Positions 1,770-64,000 of a stretch of DNA of 64,000 nt are shown here, piece by piece. Both the position numbers and the translations under genes were made by a program. The DNA is taken from the NCBI GenBank assembly GCA_051867895.1, contig JBJDZH010000005.1:103487-167486 (forward strand), given 5' to 3'. Source of the stretch: Eubacteriales bacterium. GTDB lineage: Bacteria > Bacillota > Clostridia > Oscillospirales > CAG-272. A model generated the notes under the pieces. It was not told where the DNA came from, made no database searches, and worked only from the letters and a program-made list of their open reading frames with translations. How positions within the stretch are numbered: the stretch's first letter is position 1; the number at the start of each line of letters is the position of its first letter.

Positions 1770-2335
1770 GAGAAACGCAAAGGGAAACGCAAAGGGAAAC
1801 GCAAGGGGGGCGCCTTTTGAAAAAGGCGTCCCCCTTGACCCCCCGCGAAAACTTTCGGGCAAAAACAGGGGTATCGTACAGGCTAAGGTGTATGGTACCA
1901 TGGATCAGTATGAAAGTTTCTGAGGGGTACGGGGGACTCTGCTGCGGGGGAGAGGACCATCTCAGACGCCGAAGTTCCTCTCCCCCGCATCCCTCTCTCC
2001 TTGGCTGAGGGAACGGTTTCTCATGCGTCGCTCCATCAAAAACACAAGGAGCGCGAGCGCGAACGTGTTTTTCGGGAGGGGCGTGCAAGGTGAATTCTGA
2101 CGATTCCGGCTGCACGCTGCCGCGCTGCACGGCATCCGGAGCGATAGCGAGCGGATTTCGCTGTGCTTTGACGGGGATTCAGTGTGAAAGTTTAAGGGGG
2201 TGTGGACGACATTGCGCTCCGCGCAAGTCGGCGAGGTTGCGCAAAGCGCAACCTCGCGGGAGTCTTATTCATAAGGTTCCCCCACGGCGTTCCCCCGCAT
2301 CGTTCTCCCGCCCCGCGTCCCCTGCGCCACGTCCA
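1770..2335 (-). repeat. Mosaic intergenic repeat cluster 1: Z-A-B-degenerate P-B', then a reverse-oriented core G/F/E/D/C/B', then Q and Z'
   Basis: Three 12-bp units GGGAAACGCAAA at 1776-1803. Hairpin A at 1802-1837 (caaggggggcgccttttgaaaaaggcgtcccccttg). 45-bp hairpin H1 at 1944-1988. Module D (aacacaaggagcgcgagcgcgaacgtgttttt) at 2040-2072. Module Q double hairpin (gacattgcgctccgcgcaagtc / gcgaggttgcgcaaagcgcaacctcgc) at ~2205-2258. All modules recur elsewhere in the window. Confidence 0.9.
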
Positions 2336-2345
2336 CCCAGTCCCC

Positions 2346-2374
2346 TTGCAAAACGGTGCAAAGGCTGATATAAT
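2346..2374 (+). promoter_or_regulatory. Sigma-A type promoter for the 2407 gene
   Basis: TTGCAA (2346-2351), 17-nt spacer, TATAAT (2369-2374), about 30 nt upstream of the ATG. Confidence 0.5.
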
Positions 2375-2406
2375 GAAAGAAAAAGCGCAAGAAAGGCGGA
2401 TGAGTC

Positions 2407-3117
2407 ATGGAACAGATATACACGATCCCGGTAAACGAAGCGTTTGAGGCGTCGGCGGCGGACGCGTCGCTCGGCTGCCCGTTCTGCCGGCTGTACAATA
2501 AACTGGAGGGAGACGAGCTGGAGCTGATTCTCGGCGCGTCGATGATGGAGCCGGACGTCCGCATCCGGACAAACGAGCTGGGCTTCTGCCGCGATCATTT
2601 CGCCATGATGCTCCGCCGCCCGAAGCGGCTGCCGCTGGCGCTGATTCTGGAGAGCCACCTCGCCGAGCAGAAAAAGAACATCGGCGCGTCCGCCGCATTC
2701 GTGGGACATGCCGGCGAGAACGCCGCAAAAAAATTCACAACGCTCTCCCAATCCTGCTACGTCTGCTCGCGCATCGAGTACAACTTCGTGCGCATGCAGG
2801 AAACTGCCGCGCTCCTGTGGGAGCAGGACCCCGACTTCCGCAAAAAAACGGAGGCTCAGCCGTTTTTCTGCCTGCCGCATTTCGCCGGCCTCGTCTCCGC
2901 CGCCAGAGAACGCATGAGCCGCCGCACCTTCGCCGATTTCTATAAATCCGTCTCCGCGCGCGAGAACGAATACATGGAAAAGCTGAACGCCGACGTGAGT
3001 TGGTTCGTCAAGAAATTCGACTACCGCTACGACGCGGAGCCGTGGGGCGACGCGAAAGACGCCCCCGAACGCGCAATCACTTTCCTCTCCGGCAAGCTCC
3101 ACGAGGAGGAAACGTAA
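2407..3117 (+). CDS. Cysteine-rich conserved hypothetical protein (two CxxC pairs; resembles the DUF6062 family as I recall it)
   Basis: 236-aa ORF with CPFC and CYVC motifs, non-repetitive composition, its own promoter and a strong terminator. The family assignment is from memory, not a search. Confidence 0.6.
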   Translation: MEQIYTIPVNEAFEASAADASLGCPFCRLYNKLEGDELELILGASMMEPDVRIRTNELGFCRDHFAMMLRRPKRLPLALILESHLAEQKKNIGASAAFVGHAGENAAKKFTTLSQSCYVCSRIEYNFVRMQETAALLWEQDPDFRKKTEAQPFFCLPHFAGLVSAARERMSRRTFADFYKSVSARENEYMEKLNADVSWFVKKFDYRYDAEPWGDAKDAPERAITFLSGKLHEEET

Positions 3118-3161
3118 AGAAAAAGAGGATCCCGTACCGCTGCACGGGATCCTCTTTTTTT
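3118..3161. terminator. Bidirectional rho-independent terminator
   Basis: aaagaaaaa-GAGGATCCCGT-accgctgc-ACGGGATCCTC-ttttttt. An 11-bp GC-rich stem flanked by an A-run and a T-run, lying between the convergent genes ending at 3117 (+) and 3239 (-). Confidence 0.8.
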
Positions 3162-5891: not shown

Positions 5892-5998
5892 ATTGGTCTC
5901 CTTTCCTGCTTTCGCAGATGCCGCCGGTACGGCGGCGTTTTTTAGTTTTTTGTTTTTTAGATAGTATGGAGCGGCGCGCCGCCGTTTATCCGCGCGCG

Positions 5999-6979: not shown

Positions 6980-7014
6980 GGGTTCCTCCTGAAATATACA
7001 GAAGTAAGGGAATA

Positions 7015-7560
7015 CGCCGGGGGAAACTTTTTGAAACAAGTTTCCCCCATGCCCCTTTCAAAAACTTTCATACTGAATACACAATACTGTGCAGCGGGAT
7101 TTTCTTCGTGCGGTACTCTGTTTTTGCTCTGAGAGTTTTGGGGGAACATCTCAGTTATGGAGAAAGACTCATTCACCTCGCATTGCGGGGGAGAGGACCA
7201 TCTCAAGCGCCTCGCATTGCGGGGGAAAGGACCATCTCAGACGCCGAAGTTCCTCTCCCCCGCAACCCTCTCTCCTTGGCTTCCGGAGGGAGGGTGCGGC
7301 ATTTCGCTTTCCACATCAAAAAACACAGGGAGCGCGGGCGCGAACGTGTTTTTCGGGATGGGCGGGCAGAGGGAATTCTAACGGTTTCCGCTGCACTCTG
7401 TCGCACCGCACGGCATCCGGAGGGATAGCGGACAGGTTCTACTGCGCTTTGACGGGCATTCAGTTTGAAAGCTCTTGAGGGGGTGCGGGGGAACTTCTTG
7501 CAGAAGTTCCCCTGCATCGTTCTCCCCACGCCCCTTGCCTCCGCATCCCCTGCTGTTTGC
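7015..7560 (-). repeat. Mosaic repeat cluster 2: A-B-degenerate P-B', then a reverse-oriented core with 2 tail units, then A and Z'
   Basis: Hairpin A at ~7019-7049 and 7485-7515. Tail units at 7146-7218. H1 at 7219-7263. Modules E/D/C at 7264-7460. The cluster fills the whole birA-amidohydrolase spacer. Confidence 0.9.
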
Positions 7561-10171: not shown

Positions 10172-10185
10172 GACGCCGGGAGATA

Positions 10186-10375
10186 CCGGGGAAAACTTTT
10201 TGAAAAAAGTTTTCCCCAAGCCCTTTTCCAAAACCTTCAAACGGAACGCCCGGCGCCGTGCAGCGGAATTTCCGCTGTACAATACCCCTGTTTTTGCCCC
10301 GAAAGTTTTGGGGGCGTGGGGACTTTTCCAGAAAGTCCCCGCATCGTTCCCCCTCCTGCACGGGGACGGGCGGCA
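10186..10375. repeat. Mosaic repeat cluster 3 (A-B-small hairpin-half P-B'-A'-Z'), without a long core
   Basis: Hairpin A at 10188-10217 (ggggaaaactttttgaaaaaagttttcccc). Palindrome cagcggaatttccgctg at 10261-10277. A second A-type hairpin ggggacttttccagaaagtcccc at ~10318-10340. Confidence 0.8.
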
Positions 10376-12159: not shown

Positions 12160-12385
12160 GGAACGGAGAACGGGGAACGGAGAACGATGCGGGGGCTTTT
12201 TGAAAAAAGTCCCCGCGCCCCCAAAAACTTTCGGGCAAAAACAGGGATACTGTACGGCGAAATTTTCGCTGTGCGGGACTGTATATCAGTTTGAAAGTTT
12301 TTGAAAGGGGCACGGGAAAACTTTTTTCAAAAAGTTTTCCCCGGCATATCCCTTCCCCCGGCGTCTCCCCGTATCCCCTGTGGGC
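12160..12385. repeat. Mosaic repeat cluster 4 (Z-A-B-degenerate P-B'-A'-Z') between iorA and iorB
   Basis: Z units ggaacggagaacggggaacggagaacg directly after the iorA stop. Hairpin A gggggctttttgaaaaaagtcccc at ~12191-12214. A' gggaaaacttttttcaaaaagttttcccc at ~12314-12342. The repeat lies inside an operon. Confidence 0.85.
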
Positions 12386-15922: not shown

Positions 15923-16142
15923 GCTGCTGCCTGCTGTGTTCGTGATGCGTGAGTAATTAAACCCACAGATAACAAATGGAGCCCGGACTTCTCCTGCCGG
16001 TATGCAGACCTCCCCCGCGCCGCTCCTTTGACCGGCGCGGCGGACGCTGGGAGCACAAAACAGGAGAGAGGGCACCGCCCTTGCGAAAGCAGGGTTTCTA
16101 TCTTCTTGCGCACACGGCACGGCGGGTATTTTTGCCGGTACC

Positions 16143-16174
16143 GGCGCTCGCCTTCGGGCGGGCGCCGTTTTTTT
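16143..16174 (+). terminator. Rho-independent terminator
   Basis: GGCGCTCGCC-ttcg-GGCGGGCGCC followed by gttttttt. Confidence 0.75.
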
Positions 16175-16301
16175 GAGAAAATGCGCCGCGCGGACTTCAC
16201 GACGGAAGCACGGCAGCTTCCCGAACGGACGGGCTGCGCCGCCCTCCCGCACATATTTCAATCACCCGCCCCGGCGGCAAAGTCCGCCTGAAAGGAATCA
16301 T

Positions 16302-18440
16302 ATGTCAAACGAAACATTGCTCAAATGCCGCTTTTCGGACAGCGGCCGCGGATTCGGCTTCGCCTCTCCCCTGGAGGAGGAGGGCGAGGATCTCTTTATC
16401 GCACCAGACAGCACCATGAGCGCCATGACCGGCGACACCGTGCTCGTCCACCGATACCGGCGGGGCGAGGCGGGCTACACGCGCGGCAGCGAGGGTGAAG
16501 TCACCCGGATCCTCGAGCACGGCAATACCGAGATCATTGGCGCCTTTGCCATGCGCGGCGCCGAGGGCGTCGTTGTGCCGGACAACGAAAAGCTCCACGC
16601 CGAGGTCTCCGTGCGCGGCTCCGACATCGGCGCGGCGCATCCCGGCGACAAGGTCGCCGTCCGGATCACCGCCTATCCGCGCCGCCGCCGCGGGGAGGAG
16701 CTGTTCCGTCTGGAGGGCTACGTCACCGCCGTATTCGGGCGCGCCGAAACAAGAGAGGCAAACTACGCCGCCGTCCTCCACCAGAACGGCATTCCCACCG
16801 AATTCTCCGACGACGCCGAGTGGGAGGCGGAAGACGCCGCCGCCCGCCCGCTTCGTGAGGAGGGTCGGCTGGATTTCCGCGATCAGCCGACGCTGACGAT
16901 CGACAGCGCGGACGCGAAGGACCTCGACGACGCCGTCTCCCTTTCCCGCACCGACGGAGGCTGGCTGCTCGGCGTACACATTGCGGACGTCTCCGAATAC
17001 GTCCGCGAGGGAGGCGTGCTCGACCGCGAGGCGTACGAGCGCGGCACCTCCGTCTATTTTGTAGACAAGGTCGTTCCCATGCTGCCGGTAGCGCTCTCCA
17101 ACGGCGCCTGCTCGCTGAACGGCGGCGAAACGCGGTACGCGCTCTCCGCTTTTCTGACCATCGGCGAGGACGGCGTGACGCGCGGCTGCGAATTTAAGAA
17201 AACGCTGATCCGTTCCGACGTGCGCGGCGTATACAGCGAGGTCAACGATCTGTTTGAAAACGGGCGCGCGTCCGCGTTCGCACAGAAATACGACGCCGTA
17301 TACGACATGCTCGCGGATATGCGCGTATTGTACGAAACGCTCCGCCGCGCCGCCGAGGCGCGCGGTCAGCTCAATCTCGAGAGCACTGAGGCGAAGATCC
17401 TGCTGGACGAAAAGGGGCTGCCGGTCGATATCGTTCCGCGCGTGCGCGGTACGGCGGAGCTGATGATCGAGCAGTTCATGCTGGCGGCGAACATCGGCGC
17501 GGCGACATGGCTGCACGCGCGGGGACTCCCGTGCCTGTACCGTGTCCACGAGGATCCCATGCCGGAGAAGATCTCCGCCTTTGCGGTTTTTGCGCACAAC
17601 ATGGGGCTGGATGTCACCGGGATCACCGGCGGCGTATCCTCCGCGCGGCTCGGGCAGCTGCTCGGCGAGGCGGCGGAGAAGGGCGTCGGCGAGGTCGTTT
17701 CCGGCGTTTTGCTGCGCAGTCTTGCCAAAGCGCGCTACAGCGAAAAGCCCGGCTCTCACTACGGGATCGCCGCGCCGCTGTACTGCCACTTCACCTCGCC
17801 GATCCGCCGTTATCCCGATCTGTTCGTCCACCGGGCGATTTCCTCGGCGCTGACCGGGTCACGTCTGCCGTCCCATCCGGCGGAAAGCGCCCGCGTAACC
17901 AGCGACGCAGAGATGCGTGCCGTGACCGCCGAGCGGCAGATTGAGGATATCTACATGGCGCAATACTGCTCCTTCCACATCGGCGAGGAATATGACGCGT
18001 CGGTTTCGTCCGTCTGCTCCTTCGGCGTTTTCGCGAAAACGGACAAGCTCTTTGAGGGGCTTGTGCCGATCGAGGCGCTGTTCGGCGCATGGGTTCGTCC
18101 GGAATACAATGCCGAGCGCATGACGCTTACCGGTGGGGGGCAGACTTACCGTCTCGGTGACAGGCTCCGCATCCGCATTGAGCGCGCGGACGTCGCCAGC
18201 GGGCAGATCGATTTTGCGCTCGCCTCCGCGCCTGTTTCCGCTGCGCCTTCGCAGAAGCAGCCGGCAGGCGGATACCGCATCCGTCCGTCAGAGAGGCATG
18301 CATCCGGGCGCCGGGCGGATAACCGGCGCACGGGCGGACACGGCGGAACGGACAGGAAAAGCCGTCCGGCAGACAGCAGGGATGGCGCCCGCCGCACAGG
18401 CGGACGCCGCACGGCGGGAAAAAGGAACCGTCGCGGATGA
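16302..18440 (+). CDS. rnr: Ribonuclease R
   Basis: 712 aa from MSNETLLKCRFSDSGRGFGFA (cold-shock/OB). RNB domain (TIDSADAKDLDDAVS, HYGIAAPLYCHFTSPIRRYPDL), S1 domain and an Arg/Gly-rich tail. The track start at 16173 is upstream of the SD AAAGGA. Confidence 0.92.
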   Translation: MSNETLLKCRFSDSGRGFGFASPLEEEGEDLFIAPDSTMSAMTGDTVLVHRYRRGEAGYTRGSEGEVTRILEHGNTEIIGAFAMRGAEGVVVPDNEKLHAEVSVRGSDIGAAHPGDKVAVRITAYPRRRRGEELFRLEGYVTAVFGRAETREANYAAVLHQNGIPTEFSDDAEWEAEDAAARPLREEGRLDFRDQPTLTIDSADAKDLDDAVSLSRTDGGWLLGVHIADVSEYVREGGVLDREAYERGTSVYFVDKVVPMLPVALSNGACSLNGGETRYALSAFLTIGEDGVTRGCEFKKTLIRSDVRGVYSEVNDLFENGRASAFAQKYDAVYDMLADMRVLYETLRRAAEARGQLNLESTEAKILLDEKGLPVDIVPRVRGTAELMIEQFMLAANIGAATWLHARGLPCLYRVHEDPMPEKISAFAVFAHNMGLDVTGITGGVSSARLGQLLGEAAEKGVGEVVSGVLLRSLAKARYSEKPGSHYGIAAPLYCHFTSPIRRYPDLFVHRAISSALTGSRLPSHPAESARVTSDAEMRAVTAERQIEDIYMAQYCSFHIGEEYDASVSSVCSFGVFAKTDKLFEGLVPIEALFGAWVRPEYNAERMTLTGGGQTYRLGDRLRIRIERADVASGQIDFALASAPVSAAPSQKQPAGGYRIRPSERHASGRRADNRRTGGHGGTDRKSRPADSRDGARRTGGRRTAGKRNRRG

Positions 18441-18444
18441 CGAG

Positions 18445-19230
18445 CGGGGAAAGTGCAGGGGAAGGCAGAGAACGGAACGCAAGGGGGCTTTTTGAAAAAA
18501 GCCCCCTTGACCCCCCAAAAAACTTTCATACTGAATCCCCGCCAAGGCACAGCGAAGCCAACTCGCCACCTCTCCGGTTTCCGTGCAGCGCGCCGGAGTA
18601 CAGCGGAATCTGTCAGACCTAACCCTCCCCGCCCCTCCCAAAAAACACGTTCGCGCACGCGCTCACTGTGTTTTTGGATTCCGCGCTCCTTGTATTTTTG
18701 ATAAGGAGCGCACCACTCCCCTCAGCCAAGGAGAGTGGGGGGCGGGGGAGAGGAACTTCGGCGTTTGAGATGGTCCTCTCCCCCGCAGCACGAGGCGTTT
18801 GAGATGAGACGCGAACACGGGCACGCCGCAGGAAAACGCGCAAGAAAACGCAAGGGGGCTTTTTGAAAAAAGCCCCCTTGACCCCCAAAAACTTTCATAC
18901 TGAATCCCCATCTAAGCACAGCGAAGCCAACTCGCCTCCTCTCCGGTTTCCGTGCAGCGCGCCGGAGTACAGCGGAATCCGTCAGACCTAACCCTGTACG
19001 CCTCTCCCGAAAAACACGTTCGCGCACGCGCTCCTTGTATTTTTGATAAGGAGCCCCCATCTCCCCTCAGCCAAGGAGCGCGGAGTGCAAGGGAGAGGAA
19101 CTTCGGCGTTTGAGATGGTCCTCTCCCCCGCATACGAAGCGTTTGAAATTGTCTTCTCCCCCTCAATACATGAATGAGATTTCCCCGCGGCCAAATCATT
19201 TGAGCGGAACTTTCTTCAAAAGTTTTCCTT
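18445..19230 (+). repeat. Mosaic repeat cluster 5: two tandem full-length cores (Z-A-B-C-D-E-F-G x2) plus a terminal A-type hairpin
   Basis: Hairpin A at 18480-18509 and ~18848-18877. H1 at 18742-18786 and 19087-19131. The two copies are collinear over ~360 bp each. A-like gcggaactttcttcaaaagttttcc at 19203-19228. Confidence 0.92.
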
Positions 19231-19890: not shown

Positions 19891-20691
19891 TCAGCCGCTC
19901 GGCGCGGTGCGCTGTCGGCGCGCGTATTCCGCCGGCGTACATCCGCACGCGCGCCGGAACACGGCGATGAAGTAGCCCGCGTCCGAGAAGCCGCACTCTG
20001 CTGCCGTATTCGACACGCTTTCCCCCTGCCGCAGAAGCTGTTTCGCCTGATTGACGCGAACCTCGCTCAGAAAGCTGTGTACCGTCATCTGCGTGTACGC
20101 CTGAAAATCCCGGTTCAGCTTGTTCCGGTTTACCAGAAAGCGCCGCGCAAGCTCCGGTGTCGTCAGCGGCAGCGCACAGTTTTCACTGATATACCGCACG
20201 ACCTGCTGGATGTAATTTGGTTCCCCGCGCACAACGGCGCGCCCGGCGTCGCCCGCATAGCGGCACAACACGCACAGAATGAGCGAAAGCAGCAGTCTCC
20301 GCTCCGGCGCGTATCCGTTTTCCGGCGCAAGCCGCAGAAAATACGGCAGGATATACTGCGCTTCCTCTCCGCTCAGCGGCAAAATCCAGAAATCGGCGCC
20401 GGGGAGCGGCTCCTGCGCCGCCGCTTCGTCAAAATACAGCACATACCGCTCATACGGAAGCCCGGTGACGACGTTTGCCGCATGCATGGCGTAGGACGGC
20501 TCGAACACCACGCACGGGCCGTGTACCTCCGTTTCCGCGCCGTCGCGGCGCAGCTGCATGACCGTATCGCTCACGATAAACAGAAGCTCGCAGTGCGGAT
20601 GCAGATGCATATAATCCATTCTGCGCGGCGTCTCGTCCGATGTGTAGGACAAAACGATATCCCCTGTTTTCATGCAGTAGGTTGTCTTCAT
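19891..20691 (-). CDS. AraC-family transcriptional regulator
   Basis: 266 aa. Cupin-like N-terminal half and a C-terminal AraC HTH (AAECGFSDAGYFIAVFRRACGCTPAEYAR). Confidence 0.85.
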   Translation of the reverse strand: MKTTYCMKTGDIVLSYTSDETPRRMDYMHLHPHCELLFIVSDTVMQLRRDGAETEVHGPCVVFEPSYAMHAANVVTGLPYERYVLYFDEAAAQEPLPGADFWILPLSGEEAQYILPYFLRLAPENGYAPERRLLLSLILCVLCRYAGDAGRAVVRGEPNYIQQVVRYISENCALPLTTPELARRFLVNRNKLNRDFQAYTQMTVHSFLSEVRVNQAKQLLRQGESVSNTAAECGFSDAGYFIAVFRRACGCTPAEYARRQRTAPSG

Positions 20692-20844
20692 TTCTTCGCC
20701 CTCTTTCGTGCCGGTTTTCCGATTATCTTTGGCGCATTAGTGTGTTTTTTGACCGCTTTTGTGCCTTTTTTTCCATTATATCGAATTCTGACGCGTTTGT
20801 CAAGGACAAACATGGGGGAGTGGATGCAGGGGATGCGATACAGG

Positions 20845-21412
20845 GAAGGCGCGATACGGGGAACGGAACACAAGGGGGCTTTTTGAAAAAAGCCCCCTTT
20901 ACCCCCAAAAACTTTCATACGAAATACCCATCTAAGCACAGCGGAACCCACTCGCTACTCCTCCGGATACCGGAAAGCGCGCCAGAGTGCAGCGAAAATC
21001 GTCAGATCTCACTCCGCCCGCCCCGCTCGAAAAACACGTTCGCGCACGCGCTCCTTGTGTTTTTGATAAGGAGCGCCCCCATCTCCCCCCAGCCAAGGAG
21101 AGAGGGGTGCGGGGGAGATGAACTTCGGCGTATGAGATGGTCCTCTCCCCCGCATACGAGGCGTTCGTGATGAGACGCAGCGGCAAAAAAGCGCCACGAA
21201 GAGAACGCGCAGGGGATCCTTTTTCAAAAGGCTCCCCAAACCCCCGCAAAAACTTTCATACTGAAAAGCAGGGATATCGTATAGCTCAGCCAGTACGATA
21301 TCCCTGCTTTTGTCCGATAGTTTTTGAAGGGGGACTGTGCGACATTGCGCTCCGCGCAAGTCAGCGAGTTGTGCAAAGCGCAGCATGCGGAACTTTTGTC
21401 AAGAAGTTCTCC
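20845..21412 (+). repeat. Mosaic repeat cluster 6: forward core, then Z-A-B-P-B'-Q-A; overlaps the 3' end of the ROK gene
   Basis: Hairpin A at ~20872-20900. H1 at 21109-21153. P hairpin at 21264-21311. Q at ~21330-21380. The terminal A-type hairpin gcggaacttttgtcaagaagttctcccc (21387-21414) contains the ROK stop codon. Confidence 0.9.
21264..21311. terminator. P-module hairpin, a bidirectional intrinsic-terminator-like element
   Basis: aaaa-GCAGGGATATCGTA-tagctcagccag-TACGATATCCCTGC-tttt. Confidence 0.65.
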
Positions 21413-35775: not shown

Positions 35776-35785
35776 AGGACGAGCT

Positions 35786-38040: not shown

Positions 38041-38108
38041 CGCACGGTTTTTTGAAATATCCCCCTTATTTCCTGATTTATTTTGAGATTCTTGAGAGGA
38101 TGACTCAT

Positions 38109-39423: not shown

Positions 39424-39522
39424 AACAGAGCATCATGATTTTTCCGTATGCATGCGCGCTTTTTTGTGCGCTCAGCACCGTATATATCGCATATGCCGGT
39501 CGTGCCGGTAATGGAGGTTACA

Positions 39523-39903
39523 ATGGAAATCGTACTCGGAATCCTTCTGATTCTCGCATCTGTGTTTCTTATCGTCGCAGTTCTTCTTCAGCAGGGCAAA
39601 AGCCGGAATCTGTCCGGCGCCATCGGCGGCGGCACTGCCGAGACCTTCTTCGGCAAGACAAAGTCCGACACGTTCGACAAGAAGCTGTCCCGTCTGACGA
39701 CGATCGTTGCGGTTGTATTTGTTGTTCTGGTGATCGTTATGTATCTGGCGCAGGATACGTCGGATTATTCCGGTTATGTGGCTCCCGACACGTCTGCGGC
39801 AGATAATGTGGATACTGGCGACGGTGTGGATCTGACGACGGATGCCGGTTCTGACGCCGGTGTGGATGGAACGGATGCGTCTGCCTCCGGTGCGGAAGGC
39901 TGA
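39523..39903 (+). CDS. secG: Preprotein translocase subunit SecG with an acidic D/G/T-rich C-terminal extension
   Basis: 126 aa from MEIVLGILLILASVFLIVAVLLQQGKS, with a GGAGG SD. The second TM is TTIVAVVFVVLVIVM. Confidence 0.85.
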   Translation: MEIVLGILLILASVFLIVAVLLQQGKSRNLSGAIGGGTAETFFGKTKSDTFDKKLSRLTTIVAVVFVVLVIVMYLAQDTSDYSGYVAPDTSAADNVDTGDGVDLTTDAGSDAGVDGTDASASGAEG

Positions 39904-43699: not shown

Positions 43700-44350
43700 G
43701 AAAAACTTTTTGTTTGAAGGGGAAGGGATGCTGGGGGAACTTTTTGCATAAAGTTTCCCCCAGTCCCCTTCCTAAAACTTTTGAGGGAAAAAAGGGATAT
43801 CGTACAGGCTGAGCTATACGATATCCCTGTTTTAGTATAAAAGTTTCTGGGGGTGCAGGGGACTCTTTTCAAAGAGTCCCCTGCGCGTTTTTTCCCGCGT
43901 TCCCTGCGCTTGCGTGGCATCTTACCCGCCAGAGGCGTGCGGGGAGAAAACATCTCATCCACCTCGTGTTGCGGGGGAGAGGACCATCTCAAACGCAGGA
44001 GGATTGCGGGGGAGAGGACCATCTCAGACGCCGAAGTTCCTCTCCCCCGCACCCCTCTCTCCTTGGCTGGGGAGGTGGGGACGCTCTTTATCAAAAAAAC
44101 AAGGAGCGCGGCATACAAAACACAGTGAGCGCGTGCGCGAACGTGTTTTTCGGGAGAGACGGACAGGGTGAGGTCTGACGGATTCCGCTGCACTCCGGCG
44201 CGCTGTACGGCATCCGGAGGGATAGAGAACAGATTCCGCTTGTGCTTATACGGGGATTCAGGTTGAAAGTTTTTGGGGGTCAAGGGGGCTTTTTTCAAAA
44301 AGCCCCCTTGTGTTCTCCCCCCGTCTCCCCTGCATCTGCGTTTCCGCGTG
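43700..44350 (-). repeat. Mosaic repeat cluster 11: B-A-B-P-B'-A, then a reverse-oriented full core with 2 tail units
   Basis: Hairpin A at ~43733-43761, 43855-43884 and ~44281-44310. P at 43788-43833. Tail units at 43938-44005. H1 at 44006-44050. Confidence 0.92.
43788..43833. terminator. P-module hairpin, terminator-like
   Basis: aaaaaa-GGGATATCGTA-caggctgagcta-TACGATATCCC-tgtttt. Confidence 0.65.
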
Positions 44351-46072: not shown

Positions 46073-46885
46073 ATGGGAGCAGATATCCGACGGCAGGACA
46101 TCCACGACGACCGGGACGTATGGGTCCACCGGAAAACAACGGCAGGAATGCAGATGCCGACGCACTGGCATACGCATTTTGAGATCCTGCTCGTGTATGA
46201 AGGTGACTGCCGGATCGCGGCGGGAGGGCGGGAATACAATCTGCGGGAGCCTTTTGTCGTTCTGTACCGCCCGTTTACGCCGCACGGTATGACGGTGTCG
46301 GGTACGTATACGCGGAGTATGGTAAATTTCGGCGCGCGGCAGAGGGCGTTGTTCTCCGAGAGGCTGTTTTCTCTTTCATTTTTGGATCGCGCGCCGCTTT
46401 TTCTTGTGCGCATACCGCCAAGCCGGCTTCCGGAGCTGGAAAAGCTGTTCTCCGCTCTGTTCGCCAACCGCGATGATTTCGCGTGCAGCCAGCTCTATCT
46501 GGCGCTGATCGTGAACTGGCTGCGGCTGGAGGAGGGAGACGCGGACGTTTTCACGGAAGCGGAGCCGTATGTGGAGACGGCGCTGCGCTATATGGGGGAA
46601 AATCTGTCGCAGCCGCTGGCGCTGGAGGAAGTGGCGCGGCACTTCGGCGTCGGACGGACAAAGCTGAACCGGGATCTGCGCGAGGCGGTCGGCATGACGT
46701 TCCGACCGTATCTGACAGAGCTGCGGCTGACGCGCGCAAGAGAAATGCTGCTCGACGGCTTCTCTGTGACCCGCACAGCCTTTGAGTGCGGATATTCCGG
46801 CGAATCCCATTTTATCTGCGCTTTCCACCGCCGCTGGGGCGTTACGCCCGGTGCAATGAAAAAACAGGGATATCGTACAGGCTGA
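46073..46885 (+). CDS. AraC-family transcriptional regulator
   Basis: 270 aa from MGADIRRQD (GAGGAGG SD). Cupin-like N-terminal half and C-terminal AraC HTH (FECGYSGESHFICAFHRRWGVTPG). The last 8 codons and the stop lie in the P hairpin. Confidence 0.85.
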   Translation: MGADIRRQDIHDDRDVWVHRKTTAGMQMPTHWHTHFEILLVYEGDCRIAAGGREYNLREPFVVLYRPFTPHGMTVSGTYTRSMVNFGARQRALFSERLFSLSFLDRAPLFLVRIPPSRLPELEKLFSALFANRDDFACSQLYLALIVNWLRLEEGDADVFTEAEPYVETALRYMGENLSQPLALEEVARHFGVGRTKLNRDLREAVGMTFRPYLTELRLTRAREMLLDGFSVTRTAFECGYSGESHFICAFHRRWGVTPGAMKKQGYRTG

Positions 46886-46907
46886 GCTATACGATATCCC
46901 TGTTTTT
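46859..46907. terminator. P-module hairpin, a bidirectional intrinsic terminator shared by convergent genes
   Basis: aaaaaa-CAGGGATATCGTA-caggctgagcta-TACGATATCCCTG-ttttt. The AraC stop TGA (46883-46885) lies in the loop. Confidence 0.75.
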
Positions 46908-47495
46908 GTATAAAAGATACTGGGGGTGGGGGGACTCTTGAAAAGAGTTCTCTGCACGTTTTCCCCGCGTTCCCTGTGCTTGCGCGGCATCTTACCCGCC
47001 AGAGGCGTGCGGGGAGAAAATATATCATCCACCGGAGGAATGAGGAAAGAAATCTCATTTTCCGGACTGTGGAGGAAAAACATATCAAACGCCTCGTGAT
47101 GCAGGGGAGAGGACCATCTCAAACGCAGAGGATTGCGGGGGAGAGGACCATCTCAGACGCCGAAGTTCCTCTCCCCCGCACCCCACTCTCCTTGGCTCTC
47201 GGGGAGATGGGGTGCGTTCCGAATCCAAAAACACAGTGATCGCGTGCGCGAACGTGTTTTTCGGGAGGGCTGGCAGGGTGAATCCTAACAGATTCGGCTG
47301 CACTCTGCCGCGCTGCACGGCATCCGGAGGGATAGCGGGCAGATTCCGCTGTGCTTATACGGGGATTCAGTATGAAAGTTTTTGGGGGTCAAGGGGGGCT
47401 TTTTTCAAAAAGCCCCCTTGCGTTCTCCTGCGCTTTTTCCTGCGTCGTTCTCCCCTGCATTGCGTTCTCCCCCGCATCCTTCTCCCCCGCGCCTG
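46908..47495 (-). repeat. Mosaic repeat cluster 12: B'-A, tail units, then a reverse-oriented full core
   Basis: A-type hairpin at ~46928-46950. Tail units at ~47020-47134. H1 at 47135-47179. Hairpin A ggggggcttttttcaaaaagccccc at ~47393-47417. Z' runs to ~47495. Confidence 0.9.
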
Positions 47496-49764: not shown

Positions 49765-50565
49765 GCGGTGGGAATATGCAAGGGGGTGCAGAAGTTCCCC
49801 TGCATCTGCGTTTTCCCCCGTAGCGTTCCCTGTGTCGCGCACCTTACGTTCACGTGTCATCACAAACGCCTCGTGTTGCGGGGGAGAGGACCATCTCAAA
49901 CGCCGAAGTTCCTCTCCCCCGCAGCCCTCTCTCCTTGGCTGAGGGTGAGGTGGCATTTCGCTTTCCTCCATCAAAAAACACAAGGAGCGCGTGCGCGAAC
50001 GTGTTTTTCGGGATGGGCGGGCAGAGTGAGGTCTGACGGTTTCAGCTGCACTCTGCCTCGCTGCACGGTATCCGGAGGGATGGCGAACAGGTTTCGCTGT
50101 GCTTTGACGGGGACTTAGTCCGAAAGTTTAAGGGGGGCGTGGGGGATTTTTTCAAAAATCCCCCACGTCGTTCTATCTTGCGTCCCCCCACGACGTCCCC
50201 CGCGTCCGCGCCTCGTGTTGCGGGGGAGAGGACCATCTCAAACGCCGAAGTTCCTCTCCCCCGCAGCCCTCTCTCCTTGGCTGGCGGGGATGGGGGCGTT
50301 TGCGTCCATAATTACAAAATGCAGCGAGTGCGGCATCAAAAAACACAAGGAGCGCGGGCGCGAACGTGTTTTTGGGGATGGGCGGGCAGAGTGAGGTCTG
50401 ACGGTTTCCGCTGCACTCTGCCTCGCTGCACGGTATTCGGAGGGATGGCGAACGAATTTCGCTGTGCTTTGACGGGGACTTAGTCCGAAAGTTTAAGGGG
50501 GCGTGGGGGATTTTTTCAAAAATCCCCCGCGTCGTTCTCTTGCGTCCGTTCTCCTGCATCCGCGT
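49765..50565 (-). repeat. Mosaic repeat cluster 13: two tandem reverse-oriented full cores filling the nifS-rlmH spacer
   Basis: H1 at 49878-49922 and 50220-50264. Hairpin A gggggattttttcaaaaatccccc at 50141-50164 and 50505-50528. The copies are near-identical, with a ~22-bp indel in module E. An A-type hairpin lies at ~49785-49810. Confidence 0.92.
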
Positions 50566-50570
50566 CCCCC

Positions 50571-51746
50571 TTATCGTTTGGCAAGTCTCCGGGCGCCGTC
50601 GGCGATGGCGGCGGCAAGGACGGCTGCTTCCGCCGTCGTGTTGGCGGGTCCGATGCTCACGCGGATCGTCTCGTCCGCTTCGCGCTCGCTCAGACCGAAC
50701 GCCAGCATCGCGCGGCTCACCGAATGCGCGCGCGCCGAGCACGCCGAGCCGGCCGAAACACAGATCCCCTGCGAGGACAGGTGATTCAGCATCACCTCGC
50801 TCCGCACGCCCGGAATCCGCAGACTCACAATGTTCGCAATCCCCGCCGCCGGTACGTTCACGCATACCTCCGGTGCCAGATCGCGAAGCCCGTCCAGCAG
50901 CGCTGCCCGCACCGCACCGGCAGCCGCCGCATTCACGTCCAGATTCTCCGCCGCCAGCCGCGCGGCTTCTCCGAATCCTGCGATCCCCGGTACATTCTCC
51001 GTACCGGAGCGCATGCCGCCCTCCTGTCCGCCGCCCGGCAGCGTCGGAATCAGCCGCCGCGCGCGCAGCAGCGCCGCGGAAACGTACAGCGCCCCGATCC
51101 CCTTCGGACCGCCGATCTTGTGTCCGCTCACCGTCACCATGTCCGCTCCGAGCTGAAGCGGCGTGAAGCGCACCTTCCCAAACGCCTGTACCGCATCCGT
51201 ATGCGTGACGGCGTCCGGCGACTGCGCCCGGATCAGCGAAAATGCGCGCCGCACGTCGTAGAGCGCCCCGCTTTCGTTGTTCACCAGCATCATCGTCGCC
51301 AGGATCACCCCTGCCGCGTTCGCCGCGACATAGTCCAGATCCAAAGCTCCGCCCCGCGTCGGAACGCGGCAGACCGTGAAGCCGTCCGCCTCCAGCCGGC
51401 GCAGCGCCTGCTCCACCGCCGGATGCTCACTGTCCGTCGAGAGAATCTTCCCGCGCGTTCCATCCTTCTCCGGGCGGCGCTTCGCGTACACCGATCCGAC
51501 AATCGCCAGATTGTCCGCTTCCGTGCCGCAGGAGGTGAAAATCAGACGTCCCTCCGCCTCGCGCCGGACGCCAAGCGCACGCGCAACGCGGCGGCGTCCC
51601 TCCTCGCACAGCGCGCGCGCACCAATGCCTGCCCCGTGTACCGACGACGGATTTGCCCATTCGTTTCGCAAGGCGCGCTCCATCTCGTCAACAACGGACG
51701 GCAGCGGCGCCGTTGTCGCCGAATTGTCAAAATAGATCCAGCTCAT
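50571..51746 (-). CDS. nifS: Cysteine desulfurase (NifS/IscS class V aminotransferase)
   Basis: 391 aa. YFDNSATT, the PLP-lysine motif SGHKIGGPKGIGALY, and the active-site Cys region SAGSACS. Confidence 0.9.
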   Translation of the reverse strand: MSWIYFDNSATTAPLPSVVDEMERALRNEWANPSSVHGAGIGARALCEEGRRRVARALGVRREAEGRLIFTSCGTEADNLAIVGSVYAKRRPEKDGTRGKILSTDSEHPAVEQALRRLEADGFTVCRVPTRGGALDLDYVAANAAGVILATMMLVNNESGALYDVRRAFSLIRAQSPDAVTHTDAVQAFGKVRFTPLQLGADMVTVSGHKIGGPKGIGALYVSAALLRARRLIPTLPGGGQEGGMRSGTENVPGIAGFGEAARLAAENLDVNAAAAGAVRAALLDGLRDLAPEVCVNVPAAGIANIVSLRIPGVRSEVMLNHLSSQGICVSAGSACSARAHSVSRAMLAFGLSEREADETIRVSIGPANTTAEAAVLAAAIADGARRLAKR

Positions 51747-60399: not shown

Positions 60400-60865
60400 A
60401 CGGGGGACGGATACAAAGGGACGGATACAAAGGGCGGGGAACGCCGTGGGGGAACCTTTTGAATAAGACTCCCGCGAGGTTGCGCTTTGCGCAACCTCGC
60501 CGACTTGCGCGGAGCGCAATGTCGCCCACACCCCCTTAAACTTTCGGACTTTGACACGGTCTAAGCATAGTTAACTCTGACCGCTATCTCTCCGGATTCC
60601 GTGCAGCGCGGCAGAGTGCAGCCGGAATCGTCAGAATTCACTCTGCCCGCCCCGCCCGAAAAACACGTTCGCGCACGCGCTCCTTGTGTTTTTGATGGAG
60701 AACGCAAAACGTCATGCTTCTTCTTTCCCTCAGCCAAGGAGAGAGGGATGCGGGGGAGAGGAACTTCGGCGTCTGAGATGGTCCTCCCCCCCGCAATCGT
60801 GAGGCGGATGAGATGCTCCCCACACCCCCGCGCCACGAGACGGGTGAGACCCCCGCGATAAGGGT
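60400..60865 (+). repeat. Mosaic repeat cluster 14: Z-A-Q-B, then a forward core
   Basis: 14-bp units gggacggatacaaag x2 at 60404-60432. A-type hairpin at ~60447-60475. Q (gcgaggttgcgctttgcgcaacctcgc, then cgacttgcgcggagcgcaatgtcg) at ~60474-60523. H1 at 60750-60794. Tail to ~60865. Confidence 0.9.
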
Positions 60866-60961: not shown

Positions 60962-61822
60962 ATGAAATACATCGATCTCCATACCCACTCCCTGAAGAGC
61001 GACGGCTCGCTCACCCCTGCCGGGGTGGTTTGCGCCGCGAAGGACGCAGGTCTGGCTGCCATCGCCCTCTCCGACCACGATTCCGTCGACGGCGTTGAGG
61101 AAGCCGTCGAGGAAGGACGCCGCCTCGGCGTCGAGGTTATCCCCGCCGTCGAGCTGTCCGCCCAGTCGGACACCGAGCTGCACATCCTCGGCTATTTCAT
61201 CGATATCCACAACAAGACGCTGCGCGAAAAGCTCGCCTACGCCCTGCAGGTGCGGGACGAGCGCGAGGAGGAAACCTGCGAAAAGCTGCGCGAGCTTGGC
61301 TTCGACATCACGATGGACGAGGTCCGCGCCGAGGCAAACGGCAATCCCGTCCTCTGCCGCGCGCATTTCGCCAAGATCATGGTGCGCAAGGGCTACGCCG
61401 AATCGGTGAAGGACGCCTTCGCGCGCTACCTTTCCAGCGGCTGCTACGCCTACTCCAACCGGCAGGCGCTGACCGGTCCGGAGGCGGTCTCCCTTATCCG
61501 CGAGGCGGGCGGCATTCCTGTCGCCGCGCATCTGCACCTCATCCGCCTGCCGGACGGTGAGCTGCGGGAATTCCTTTCGTCGCTGATCCCGTACGGTCTC
61601 GGCGGCGTGGAGGGCTACTACACCGATTACACCCCCGATATGCAGCTGCGCTATCAGCGGATGGCGGCTGAACTGGGACTGACGATCTCCGGCGGCACCG
61701 ACTTCCACGGCGCGAATAAGCCTCACATCACTATCGGTCGTGGGCTGGGGGAACTGCGCATTCCCTATACCGTCCTCGACGGGCTGCGCGAAAAGCACGC
61801 CGCGATGGGGAAAAACTTTTGA
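60962..61822 (+). CDS. PHP-domain phosphoesterase (TrpH/YciV-like)
   Basis: 286 aa. N-terminal IDLHTHSLKSDGS and SDHDSVDG metal motifs. The last 5 codons and the stop lie in an A-type hairpin. Confidence 0.85.
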   Translation: MKYIDLHTHSLKSDGSLTPAGVVCAAKDAGLAAIALSDHDSVDGVEEAVEEGRRLGVEVIPAVELSAQSDTELHILGYFIDIHNKTLREKLAYALQVRDEREEETCEKLRELGFDITMDEVRAEANGNPVLCRAHFAKIMVRKGYAESVKDAFARYLSSGCYAYSNRQALTGPEAVSLIREAGGIPVAAHLHLIRLPDGELREFLSSLIPYGLGGVEGYYTDYTPDMQLRYQRMAAELGLTISGGTDFHGANKPHITIGRGLGELRIPYTVLDGLREKHAAMGKNF

Positions 61823-61870
61823 AAAGGGTTTCTCCATCCCCCTTTCAAAAACGTTTGAAATCGGGGAAAG
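61806..61870. repeat. Solo A-B repeat module overlapping the PHP gene's 3' end
   Basis: ggggaaaaacttttgaaaagggtttctcc, followed by the palindrome tttcaaaaacgtttgaaa. Confidence 0.75.
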
Positions 61871-61938
61871 CCGGCTGCGTCCGGCGCGCAGGAAAACACA
61901 GAGAAAAATTATAATTACATAAAAGGAGCACTCCCATT

Positions 61939-63402
61939 ATGAAAAAAGCTGACATCGGTCTGATCGGTCTTGCGGTCATGGGCGAGAACCTCGTTCTCAA
62001 CATGGAGTCCAAGGGCTTCACCGTTGCGGTATTCAACCGCACCACGGAAAAGGTGACGAATTTCGTCTCCGGCCGCGGCGCAGGCAAAAACATTATCGGA
62101 ACGTACTCGCTTGCGGAACTGGTCGAAGCGGTGGAGAAGCCGCGCAAGATCATGATGATGATTAAGGCGGGCGACGCGGTCGACGCCATGATCGACGCGC
62201 TGCTGCCGCTGCTGGACGACGGCGATATCCTGATCGACGGCGGCAACTCGCATTTCCCGGACACCGCGCGCCGCACGGCGTATGTGGAATCGAAGGGCAA
62301 ACTGTACATCGGTACCGGCGTATCCGGCGGCGAGGAGGGCGCTCTGAACGGTCCGTCCCTGATGCCCGGCGGTTCGCCCGCCGCATGGCCGCATGTGAAG
62401 AATATTCTCCAGTCCATCTGTGCGAAGGTGGAGGACGGTTCGCCCTGCTGCGACTGGGTCGGTGAGAACGGCGCGGGGCATTTTGTGAAGATGGTACACA
62501 ACGGCATCGAGTACGGCGATATGCAGCTGATCTGCGAGGCGTACCATCTGATGAAGAATCTGCTGGGAATGTCGGACGACGAGATGCACGAGGTATTCGC
62601 CGAGTGGATGAAGGGGGATCTGAACAGCTATCTGGTAGAGATCACGCGGGACATTCTGGCGTACAAGGACACGGACGGCGAGCCGATCGTGGAGAAGATT
62701 CTGGACACGGCGGGGCAGAAGGGCACCGGCAAATGGACGGGTATTGCGGCGCTGGACGAGGGCGTGCCGCTGACGCTGATCGGCGAAGCGGTGTTCGCGC
62801 GCTGCCTGTCGGCGATGAAGGAGGAGCGCGTTGCGGCGTCGAAGGTGCTGCCGGGCGAAGCGGAGGCTGCTCCCGCGCTGACGGCGGAGGAGAAGGCAGA
62901 ATGGATCGAGAACATCCGCTGCGCGCTGCTGGCGTCGAAGATCGTTTCCTACGCGCAGGGCTACACGCTGATGCGTGCGGCTGCGAAGACCTACGGCTGG
63001 AATCTGAACTACGGCGGCATTGCGCTGATGTGGCGCGGCGGCTGCATCATCCGTTCCGTATTCCTGGGCAAGATCAAGGACGCTTTCGACAAGAATCCCG
63101 AGCTGACCAACCTGCTTCTCGATCCGTATTTCACCGAGAAGATCGCGTCTCTTCTGCCCGGATGGCGGAAGGTCGTAGCACAGGCGGCGCTGTCCGGCAT
63201 GCCTGTTCCCGCGTTCTCCTCGGCGCTGTCGTACTATGACGGCTATCGCTGCGAGCGGCTCCCCGCGAATCTGCTGCAGGCGCAGCGCGACTATTTCGGC
63301 GCGCACACCTATGAGAGAGTGGACGCCGAGCGCGGCAAGTTCTTCCACACGAACTGGACGGGACACGGCGGAGACACGGCGGCAAGCCAGTACATAGTCT
63401 GA
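61939..63402 (+). CDS. gnd: 6-phosphogluconate dehydrogenase, decarboxylating (NADP+)
   Basis: 487 aa. IGLIGLAVMGENLVLN Rossmann motif. Conserved GAGHFVKMVHNGIEYGDMQLI and YFGAHTYER. Confidence 0.95.
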   Translation: MKKADIGLIGLAVMGENLVLNMESKGFTVAVFNRTTEKVTNFVSGRGAGKNIIGTYSLAELVEAVEKPRKIMMMIKAGDAVDAMIDALLPLLDDGDILIDGGNSHFPDTARRTAYVESKGKLYIGTGVSGGEEGALNGPSLMPGGSPAAWPHVKNILQSICAKVEDGSPCCDWVGENGAGHFVKMVHNGIEYGDMQLICEAYHLMKNLLGMSDDEMHEVFAEWMKGDLNSYLVEITRDILAYKDTDGEPIVEKILDTAGQKGTGKWTGIAALDEGVPLTLIGEAVFARCLSAMKEERVAASKVLPGEAEAAPALTAEEKAEWIENIRCALLASKIVSYAQGYTLMRAAAKTYGWNLNYGGIALMWRGGCIIRSVFLGKIKDAFDKNPELTNLLLDPYFTEKIASLLPGWRKVVAQAALSGMPVPAFSSALSYYDGYRCERLPANLLQAQRDYFGAHTYERVDAERGKFFHTNWTGHGGDTAASQYIV

Positions 63403-64000
63403 AAAAGACGCGGACGCAGGGGGTGAGCGCGCAGGGGAACGATGTGGGGAAGCCTTTTGAAAAAGGCTCCCCCACGCCCCCCGCGAAAACTTTCAACCTG
63501 AATTCCCGCCAAAGCACAGCAAAACCTGCTTGCCATTCCTCCGGATGCCGTGCAGCGCGGCAGAGTGGAGCGAAAATCGTTAGAATTCACTCTGCCCGCT
63601 CCACCCGAAAAACACGTTCGCGCACGCGCTCCTTGTGTTTTTTGAAGGAGGAAAGCGAAGCACCGTGTCCCTTTTCCCCTCGAAGCCAAGGAGAGAGGGG
63701 TGCGGGGGAGAGGAACTTCGGCGTCTGAGATGGTCCTCTCCCCCGCAACGCGAGGCGGACGAGATGAAGACACGGACGCAGGGTGAGCGCGCAGGGGGAA
63801 CGATGTGGAGAAGCCTTTTTCAAAAGGCTCCTGCGAGGTTGCGCTAAGCGCAACCTCGCCGACTTGCGCGGAGCGCAATGTCGCCCACACCCCCTTAAAC
63901 TTTCGGACTTGAATCTCCGCCAAAGCACAGCAAAACCTGCTTGCCATTCCTCCGGATGCCGTAAAGCGGACCGAAGTGCAGCCACACCACCCCCGGTCTC
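63403..64000 (+). repeat. Mosaic repeat cluster 15: a full forward core, then the start of a second copy (Z-A-Q-B-C...) running off the window
   Basis: Hairpin A at 63444-63475. H1 at 63702-63746. Second A at ~63811-63840 and Q at ~63832-63885. Confidence 0.9.

Follow-up and report, generated by a model that had tools for sequence, protein, structure and literature searches.

What keeps the two arms of a hairpin complementary when the hairpin recurs throughout the intergenic DNA of a bacterial chromosome and the sequence of its arms changes from copy to copy? We addressed this question in a 64,000-nt stretch (the window) of the Eubacteriales bacterium assembly GCA_051867895.1 (contig JBJDZH010000005.1, positions 103,487-167,486 of the forward strand), a chromosome segment with a G+C content of 60% that surrounds the replication origin. 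The hairpin, called hairpin A, had been the subject of an original prediction, which counted about 30 copies with variable but self-complementary stems, took this variation as a sign that secondary structure is maintained in RNA or in single-stranded or cruciform DNA, and offered as an alternative that distinct subfamilies were each copied from a palindromic founder. We found that self-complementarity is what persists across copies, and that hairpin A always lies within a larger repeat, P-A-B. On balance, we favor the reading that hairpin A is the palindromic core of this repeated extragenic element, which would have spread through intergenic DNA in the manner of repetitive extragenic palindromic (REP) sequences and their mosaics (BIMEs), REPINs or elements of the MITE (miniature inverted-repeat transposable element) type.

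The P-A-B repeat and the subfamilies of hairpin A

A profile search identified 24 clear copies of P-A-B in the window. There were four further copies of hairpin A that are degenerate or interrupted (approximately 2258-2290 on the minus strand, 60447-60473, 61807-61835 and 63806-63834), so the earlier figure of about 30 was a fair one. The hairpins that had been singled out were all present, at 1802-1837, 7485-7515, 37635-37666, 10188-10217, 18480-18509, 31308-31331, 50141-50164, 50505-50528, 43855-43884 and 63444-63475. Essentially all of the 28 copies in the 64 kb are extragenic, with coding regions called by codon-position GC content and cross-checked with Pfam. The exact sequence TTTTGAAAA occurs nine times on the plus strand and eight times on the minus strand. 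Perfect hairpins with a stem of at least 11 bp and a loop of at most 5 nt number 17 in the window, compared to 0-1 in each of 20 dinucleotide shuffles.

When copies were aligned together with their surroundings, the hairpin was never solitary. It is preceded on its 5' side by P, a purine-rich stretch of tandem 8-12-nt units (for example GGGAAACGCAAA, GGRGAACG and GGAGAAGCG), each of which repeats the 5' foot of the hairpin. Hairpin A itself has a stem of 11-19 bp with G/C clamps and a conserved T-GA-A center, which is in one orientation in 68 of 72 copies. B begins 1-4 bases 3' of the hairpin and consists of a run of C followed by A(A/G)AACTTT. P-A-B is found alone, in tandem arrays, at the 5' end of a long element of approximately 350 bp, and in inverted pairs that bound composite elements. 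Together, P-A-B and the long elements cover 7,259 nt, equal to 11% of the window and 54% of its non-coding sequence.

The stems do vary in a way that preserves pairing. We aligned 34 distinct copies whose loops have two bases, taken from the window and from related species; in this alignment, 94.1% of the stem cells pair, and changes on both sides were detected in 11 of the 13 base pairs (99 cells). The covariation score was 0.564, compared to 0.228 ± 0.017 in shuffles that leave the relatedness of the copies in place, and none of the 500 shuffles reached the observed value. Sliding the pairs by one column reduced the score to 0.24-0.27. A count anchored at the center of the hairpin gave a similar picture: among 49 distinct sequences, 589 of 637 cells were Watson-Crick pairs, compared to 405 ± 12 with the arms shuffled. 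The 72 copies comprise 61 with perfect core stems, of 16 different sequences, and 11 with one imperfect position.

Most of this covariation lies between clonal subfamilies, each derived from a palindromic founder, as the alternative in the original prediction had proposed. Almost all of the stem variants come with a particular variant of the B module next to them (CTTGACCCCCAAAAACTTTCATAC with GGGGGC-T5, CACGCCCCCTTAAACTTTCGGAC with GGGGGA-T5, and CACACCCCCTCAAGAGCTTTCA with GGGGGAACTTCT), and we therefore treat the stem variants as subfamilies. Within a subfamily, we saw a clear compensatory series only at the two outermost pairs, in stems of the ACTC type, where CT/AG, CC/AG and CC/GG form successive steps and the CC/AG intermediate, with a C.A mismatch, is represented by eight copies.

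A second, smaller stem in module C of the long element had also been proposed to covary. Its variants were found at each of the four sites: GCGA/TCGC at 18552-18555/18563-18566 (plus strand), and the equivalents GCGA/TCGC at 40170-40173/40181-40184, GCAA/TTGC at 63519-63522/63530-63533 and GCGG/CCGC at 33131-33134/33141-33144. In 13 sequences, 84.6% of the cells pair, two pairs and five cells are changed on both sides, and the observed score was matched by one of 500 shuffles, so that covariation here is no more than suggestive. Elsewhere, the long element hardly varies and therefore gives no information on structure.

Hairpin maintenance in DNA or in RNA

We propose the following explanation for the maintenance of the hairpin. 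New copies would descend from a few founders, and only founders with an intact hairpin would multiply, most likely because a trans-acting enzyme recognizes the hairpin on single-stranded DNA or because copying needs it. Errors of hairpin-templated replication (template switching) would copy a change or an indel from one arm to the other, and occasionally invert the loop, thereby keeping founders perfectly palindromic. Individual insertions would then decay through one-sided mutations. The host would tolerate or retain P-A-B mainly just 3' of the stop codons of co-oriented genes, where transcripts would carry it as a 3' stem-loop.

Two kinds of change point to marks of a hairpin-templated process in DNA. 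A minimum spanning tree over the perfect stems contains 23 edits that affect both arms, several of which are mirrored indels of 1-5 bases. At one orthologous site, two strains have the loops GA and TC, respectively, an exact inversion, with the rest of the hairpin and the 3' flank identical; a flipped loop was also found in two other copies. Mirrored changes, insertions in stem halves and loop inversions have been attributed to replication template switching within hairpins (Monttinen and Loytynoja 2022, PMC8794818). That work concerned rRNA and other RNA genes compared on phylogenies and described perfect stems like those found here, whereas P-A-B is a dispersed DNA repeat whose template-switch signal comes from one orthologous loop inversion and from comparisons between subfamilies.

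The same marks would be expected if palindromy had no function and were kept by mutation, through intra-strand template switching and gene conversion among copies, such that each seemingly compensatory change in these junk repeats arose in a single mutational step. Both the creation and the repair of perfect stems by template switching are documented (PMC8794818), and the mismatches that we detected have no strand asymmetry. We nonetheless regard this explanation as quite improbable. It does not account for the loop orientation shared by 68 of 72 copies, for the conservation of the loop and the B motif over a broad clade, or for the orientation of the element relative to genes. In addition, the arms are mismatched in two of the three copies of hairpin A that are split by a 51-bp insert, and this decay suggests that the intact state is otherwise maintained or selected.

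A different possibility is that hairpin A is mainly a host RNA element: a stem-loop in the 3' untranslated region, transcribed together with the preceding gene, that terminates or shields the message or offers a protein-binding site in its UGAA loop. The stem would then be kept complementary by selection for RNA pairing, locus by locus, the motif would be needed after many genes, and its mobility would be only apparent. In 39 of 48 copies from the related species (strain duplicates included) and in 14 of 23 copies in the window, P adjoins the stop codon of a gene with the same orientation, and the hairpin is typically 30-100 nt downstream of that stop codon. Nine of the 10 long elements in non-divergent contexts are co-oriented with the genes. 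On either side of dnaA, the element is oriented with the genes and not with the replichore, and we rejected on this basis a replication-direction bias of the IS200/IS605 type. The loop, its orientation and the B motif are conserved between species, across a family-level clade; the hairpins are very stable (mean, -20.5 kcal/mol); and most of the genes that precede P-A-B do not have their own canonical terminator. Given the orientation bias and the conservation of loop and B, some effect of P-A-B at the level of the transcript, or tolerance at that level, is likely.

As the main explanation for hairpin A, a host RNA element is possible but doubtful. The stem is followed by (N)2-4 CCCCC and not by a U-tract; runs of T and A lie inside the stem. 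P-A-B copies are also found in divergent promoter regions, one copy opposes both neighboring genes, and one, on a contig from a related species (L083), lies downstream of a canonical terminator. Mismatches on the element strand are of the G:T type in eight cases and of the A:C type in six, and therefore include no excess of the wobble-like type that RNA would tolerate. Mirrored indels of several bases are hard to reach by stepwise selection, stem types track subfamilies and not loci, and orthologous RNase R loci in three relatives lack the module. A search of Rfam 15 gave no match on the elements even at E values up to 10, and none in 10 related loci; the only match in the window was 6S RNA. 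The near-equal numbers of G:T and A:C mismatches and the lack of an Rfam match mean that, of the structure that had been proposed to be maintained, persistent self-complementarity stands (16 different perfect stems in 61 copies) and a specific role of RNA finds no support. Taken together, the data point to hairpin-templated maintenance in DNA and selection of founders rather than to a structured RNA.

We also asked how hairpin A relates to transcription termination. It resembles an intrinsic terminator in being a G/C-rich stem-loop in the sense orientation 3' of genes, and differs in having no U-tract. In a terminator scan it was flagged on the opposite strand alone, on which the stem is followed by the pyrimidine-rich complement of P. 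Because there is no U-tract, one copy sits behind a real terminator, other copies are divergent or opposing, and the elements have internal hairpins with A and T tracts of their own, we conclude that hairpin A does not qualify as a canonical terminator. These internal hairpins would instead be what resembles a terminator in the elements. One of them, the "mid" module of the short elements (43793-43828, minus strand), consists of an A-tract, a long stem and a T-tract, and looks like a bidirectional intrinsic terminator carried around by the repeat. The other members of its family (D10) are at 1862-1934, 21265-21337, 40642-40714 and 46861-46933, and the module is also found in a related species (L165, 5150-5230), at the center of a short inverted-pair element.

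A variant of these ideas is that P-A-B is an undescribed orientation-specific element, conserved throughout a family-level clade of uncultured gut Clostridia. It might be a U-tract-free terminator or mRNA 3'-end module, recognized by its UGAA loop and CCCCC-AAACTTT tail, or the substrate of a new hairpin-specific enzyme (of the HUH type or another) that does not depend on GTAG; in the lineage of the window, it would have expanded to fill more than half of the non-coding DNA, and it would drive genome rearrangement. We consider this rather unlikely. If the orientation bias does reflect a 3'-end function, or if there is a new hairpin-specific enzyme, the element would be of wider interest.

It is very unlikely that hairpin A is a site in duplex DNA for a dimeric protein, such as an operator or the site of a nucleoid protein. 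The palindromic layout and the conserved center TTGAAA/TTTCAA would suit such a site. However, the half-site between clamp and center varies freely in sequence and in length (1-11 nt), with only complementarity kept; dozens of copies follow unrelated housekeeping genes; and the P and B flanks are asymmetric. Several more specific candidates were tried and rejected. Operators of the CodY, Rex or CIRCE type and integron attC sites do not fit in their motifs (judged against their consensus sequences) or in gene context. For attC, the flanks are housekeeping genes (dnaA, dnaN, gyrB, rnr, secG), there is no integrase, and the outer GAGAACG...CGTTCTC resembles only the AAC/GTT core of R''(RYYYAAC)/R'(GTTRRRY). 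A promoter reading of TTGACCCCC..CATACT or of TTGAAA has the wrong spacing, and the motif is not kept between subfamilies. A G-quadruplex reading of P was rejected because its G-tracts are inconsistent in number and spacing.

These results carry a warning for the discovery of RNA motifs: very strong covariation can come from subfamilies of a palindromic DNA repeat combined with hairpin-templated mutation, with no RNA function involved.

Known repeat families and related species

P-A-B is a new family of a known kind, the REP- or MITE-like repeat. Its resemblance to the REP, BIME and REPIN sequences of Proteobacteria, which are mobilized by RAYT (TnpA-REP) transposases, includes high-copy extragenic palindromes of 25-40 nt, mosaics with other short motifs, tandem clusters, a location mostly at the 3' ends of genes, and inverted doublets that fold as one long hairpin. 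Compensatory changes are described as "common" in REPIN hairpins (PMC3116915). The purine-rich tandem units of P and the sense-orientation bias are not features of REPs, and the host belongs to a Clostridia lineage. The inverted doublets (10176-10356, 12179-12359, 43719-43896, and 5087-5277 on L165) have the layout P-A-B, mid, B'-A'-P' and fold as a single long hairpin in which B pairs with B'. Inverted pairs of P-A-B bound the composites at 10176-10356 and 12179-12359, and that at 3353-3990 on L083.

REPs are defined by a GTAG or GT(A/G)G tetranucleotide 5' of the palindrome (PMC8266576). The 5' foot of hairpin A has no GTAG: next to P the flank reads R-CG-NN, the other strand has G-T-N-N or CGT, and GT[AG]G is found near the hairpin only where it overlaps the G-run of two subfamilies. 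This is the first of several observations that weigh against a REP- or MITE-like spread. A scan of the window and of 586 kb of related contigs for HUH motifs found no Y1 transposase, and Pfam scans of 39 open reading frames in the window (most of the called genes) found no transposase. Genes resembling those for REP-associated tyrosine transposases (RAYTs) do occur in relatives, at 4502-5135 on L003 (between gyrB and gyrA) and 5977-6500 on L005. Their products match Pfam Y1_Tnp above threshold (32.6 and 25.8 bits, respectively), and their best NCBIfam match is REP_Tyr_transpos ("REP-associated tyrosine transposase") at 53.7 and 64.7 bits, with a cut-off of 80. Both genes are flanked by classical GTAG-type REPs, GTAG+GGGCGGAT-N5-ATCCGCCC on L003 and GTAG+GGGAGGCG-N3-CGCCTCCC on L005, and not by hairpin A. 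The clade therefore has REP-RAYT systems, for which we found no link to hairpin A.

Other observations on the same side concern the element itself. No target-site duplication or exact insertion boundary of P-A-B could be defined at L083 3353-3990 or at sites polymorphic between strains. Presence/absence polymorphism, as expected of MITEs, was found; matching terminal inverted repeats were not, and the paired A hairpins inside one inverted element differ and come from separate subfamilies, unlike those of a simple MITE. The loop inversion between strains is a single case. The sense-orientation bias fits a role at the transcript level as well as or better than it fits spread, and the conservation of loop and B across the clade hints at function.

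Modular intergenic repeats and MITEs of other bacteria, such as BOX of Streptococcus pneumoniae, Correia of Neisseria and ERIC, have modular boxes, stable stem-loops, transcribed intergenic sites and terminator-like parts, and their insertions are polymorphic between strains. We know of no sequence relationship between them and P-A-B, which differs in having no target-site duplication or matching terminal repeats and in having end hairpins from different subfamilies.

The closest GyrB sequences, from uncultured Clostridia and Eubacteriales metagenome-assembled genomes of ruminant and human guts, are at most 74% identical to that of the window (species-representative genomes). We found P-A-B with other stems in related species from human-gut metagenomes (L082-L161, L164 and L165). 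In the main related species, the hairpins are GGGGGACTCTT-GA-AAGAGTCCCCC and GGGGGCTTCTT-GA-AAGAAGCCCCC, and longer stems are less common; loop and B tail are as in the window, and P-A-B again lies just 3' of stop codons. There are tandem P-A-B arrays on L131 and L153, and on L083 the inverted pair bounds a composite of 620 bp.

Exact matches to the 33-nt core of module D, a part of the long element, were found in 80 human-gut metagenome contigs, mostly from strains of one related species, and one of these contigs is 83% identical to the window over the gene for a PFOR-type oxidoreductase. Non-coding D is therefore more conserved than the PFOR coding gene. The window and these contigs have only D and P-A-B in common. 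A pattern scan of the metagenomes for module C gave no matches, and B-C, as found in the long element, is confined to the lineage of the window. A strict regular expression gave no element in 80 loci that surround gyrB in species-representative genomes (best GyrB identity, 74%); a profile search of these loci gave only weak P-A-B-like copies, in six distant relatives. Because of these weak copies, we conclude that the motif is old in the clade and has expanded massively in some lineages. A scan of viral contigs gave one match, in a fragment that resembles the related species.

Presence of P-A-B at one locus differs between related species. At the 3' end of the RNase R gene, P-A-B directly follows the stop codon in the window, L164 and L165, with a different stem in each, and L166-L168 have instead a 100-nt spacer with the promoter of the next gene and no P-A-B. 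The ancestral order around this gene, bla (beta-lactamase-like)-secG-rnr (RNase R)-M23 peptidase, is kept in the relatives compared (L165-L168). In the window (regions 38052-39903 and 16173-18440), secG and the RNase R gene are 21 kb apart, and repeat elements are located at both breakpoints.

Strains of one species differ in the copy number of the element and in their P units. L136 has a tandem duplication of a unit that is not duplicated in L096. We found no clean pairs of filled and empty P-A-B sites between strains, only changes in copy number, truncation or rearrangement at the center of the hairpin, and one insertion of a 170-bp unit carrying module D (present at L155 1473-1648 and absent from strain L082). 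Four orthologous pairs of hairpins between strains were available, too few to assess conservation in place.

Further changes were seen at individual loci. P units turn over between strains (L125 330-520, minus strand, compared to L126 2590-2780, plus strand; and 3' of a response-regulator gene in L140, L088 and L131), with a new unit inserted beside the hairpin and the old hairpin foot remaining as a P unit; the exact loop inversion (GA to TC) comes from these comparisons. All that is retained of an orthologous copy in L085 is P with the left arm, and past this point the DNA is rearranged when compared to L095. Loci of species H (for example L118 2500-3340 and L131 2911-3600) contain several further families of G/C-rich hairpins, such as GGGGATGCAAGGGGCGAAGCCCCTTGCAT, CCCCCTTCCCCGCCGGGGAAGGGGG and GCCAGTGCCGCGCGGGGGCAAGCCCCCC, in strain-variable arrays; none of these families matches Rfam.

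P-A-B is thus a very dense extragenic palindromic repeat family in Clostridia, occupying 11% of an origin-proximal window. Its density, the tandem units of P and the sense-orientation bias are its notable features. Our impression is that such repeats have been described less often in Clostridia than in Proteobacteria. There is also a practical effect, in that short-read assemblies of these gut organisms seem to be broken at the elements. A protein identical to the DnaA of the window is recorded only on a 1,785-bp contig from one sequencing run, and an RNase R at 98% identity is carried by a 2,272-bp contig; the short length of both contigs (1.8-2.3 kb) is the reason for this suggestion.

Elements and their surroundings in the window

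We identified 15 full copies of the long element by nhmmer and alignments. The reference copy (18434-18818, plus strand) has the order P, A, B, C, A5CACG..TGTGT6 hairpin, D. The others are at 1940-2321(-), 7204-7560(-), 18827-19177, 20817-21184, 31007-31366(-), 33011-33398, 37620-37955, 40063-40450, 44001-44348(-), 47124-47462(-), 49835-50204(-), 50208-50573(-), 60414-60841 and 63397-63767. The A5CACG..TGTGT6 hairpin is invariant across long elements and module D, of 65 nt, is almost invariant; the D sequences (AGCCAAGGAGAG..GGGGGAGAGGAACTTCGGCGTYTGAGATGGTCCTCTCCCCC) differ by 0-1 substitutions among the 11 copies listed. The module D hairpin, GGGGGAGAGGAACTTCGGCGTTTGAGATGGTCCTCTCCCCCGC, is at 18744-18786 (plus strand) in the reference copy. 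Fragments with D only are found at 37513-37618, 39976-40066, 7156-7211(-), 43937-43998(-) and 47068-47129(-). We rejected a reading of D as a small open reading frame (AAGGAG, then NTG), as the base at the presumed start varies among A, C, G and T from copy to copy.

Thirteen of the long elements contain a clear P-A-B. On the plus strand, that of the reference copy is at 18471-18530 (stem CAAGGGGGCTTTTT ga AAAAAGCCCCCTTG), and that of the adjacent tandem element 18827-19177 is at 18846-18899. Element 20817-21184, with P-A-B at 20859-20919, is the sole long copy that opposes both neighboring genes. The remaining plus-strand copies are at 33043-33106 in 33011-33398, upstream of dnaA (GGGGAATTTCT gca AGAAGTTCCCC, one T:G pair), 37623-37686 in 37620-37955 (TGTGGGGGAACTTCT gca AGAAGTTCCCCCACA), 40085-40148 in 40063-40450 (GGGGGGCTTTTT) and 63434-63497 in 63397-63767 (GGGGAAGCCTTTT, one A.C mismatch). 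On the minus strand, P-A-B is at 7464-7527 at the start of 7204-7560 (GGGGAACTTCT gca AGAAGTTCCCC), 31288-31345 in 31007-31366, in the dnaA-dnaN spacer (GGGGGATTTTT), 44262-44321 in 44001-44348, 47371-47428 in 47124-47462, 50121-50176 in 49835-50204 (CGTGGGGGATTTTT), and 50485-50540 in 50208-50573, which is in tandem with the preceding element.

The short inverted-pair elements have a P-A-B at each end. In 10176-10356, the left copy is at 10176-10234 (plus strand, stem GGGGAAAACTTTTT) and the right copy at 10301-10356 (minus strand, GGGGACTTT ctgga AAAGTCCCC). In 12179-12359, they are at 12179-12233 (plus strand, GGGGGCTTTTT, one G:T pair) and 12291-12359 (minus strand, GGGAAAACTTTTT). A third short element ends in the P-A-B at 43719-43783 (plus strand, CTGGGGGAACTTTT tgcat AAAGTTTCCCCCAG), and the copy at 43836-43896 (minus strand) has the stem GCAGGGGACTCTTT ga AAAGAGTCCCCTGC. 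The other copies are at 1794-1857 (plus strand, GGGGGGCGCC TTTT ga AAAA GGCGTCCCCC, one G:T pair), 7006-7072 (plus strand, GGGGGAAACTTTTT / AACAAGTTTCCCCC, one T.C mismatch), 21198-21260 (plus strand, with a flipped tc loop and one T.C mismatch), 40739-40781 (minus strand, a P-A without B and with an imperfect stem, GGGGGACTCTTT / AAAGAGTTCCC) and 46909-46967 (minus strand, degenerate).

The 51-bp insert (..CGACTTGCGCGGAGCGCAATGTCG) splits the C-run of the right arm of hairpin A in three elements. It contains a second family of palindromes, GCGAGGTTGCGC-N1-3-GCGCAACCTCGC, at 2231-2257, 60474-60500 and 63833-63859. The decayed hairpin of long element 1940-2321(-), at 2258-2290 (minus strand), has its right arm split in this way, and that of 60414-60841, at 60447-60473 (plus strand), is split by the insert at 60474-60524. 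A hairpin-A-like palindrome in the truncated element 63768-63983 (63806-63834, plus strand) is followed by the insert palindrome at 63833-63859. A degenerate A-like hairpin, GGGGAAAAACTTTTGAAAAGGGTTTCTCC, with a B-like tail is at 61807-61835 (plus strand).

The genes of the window include rnpA-yidD-jag on one side and dnaA-dnaN-gyrB-gyrA on the other, together with genes for RNase R, PFOR-type oxidoreductases, subtilases and 6S RNA. Two long elements are located in the dnaA-dnaN spacer (31007-31366, minus strand) and immediately upstream of dnaA (33011-33398, plus strand), which we take to be the usual sites of a two-part oriC in Firmicutes. There is a perfect promoter, TTGACA-18-TATAAT, at 33534-33563 and a near-perfect one at 32941-32913 (minus strand). 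An AraC-family gene (19891-20691) has a perfect sigma-70-type promoter, TTGACA-17-TATAAT, at 20803-20775 (minus strand), near the end of long element 20817-21184 that carries P. Downstream of the 6S RNA gene (Rfam RF00013, 54.7 bits; 15925-16132, plus strand) there is a canonical terminator, G/C-rich and with a T7 tail (16142-16167), and ordinary intrinsic terminators therefore exist in this genome; further canonical terminators are at 3120-3159 and 5916-5940. Finally, a jag/khpB-like gene (35522-37501) contains, within its coding sequence, seven tandem copies of a unit (36016-36414, plus strand). The unit has a period of 42-48 nt (approximately 45 nt), its copies are 62-84% identical to the reference copy, and the array may encode a repetitive linker joining the Jag_N and KH/R3H domains.

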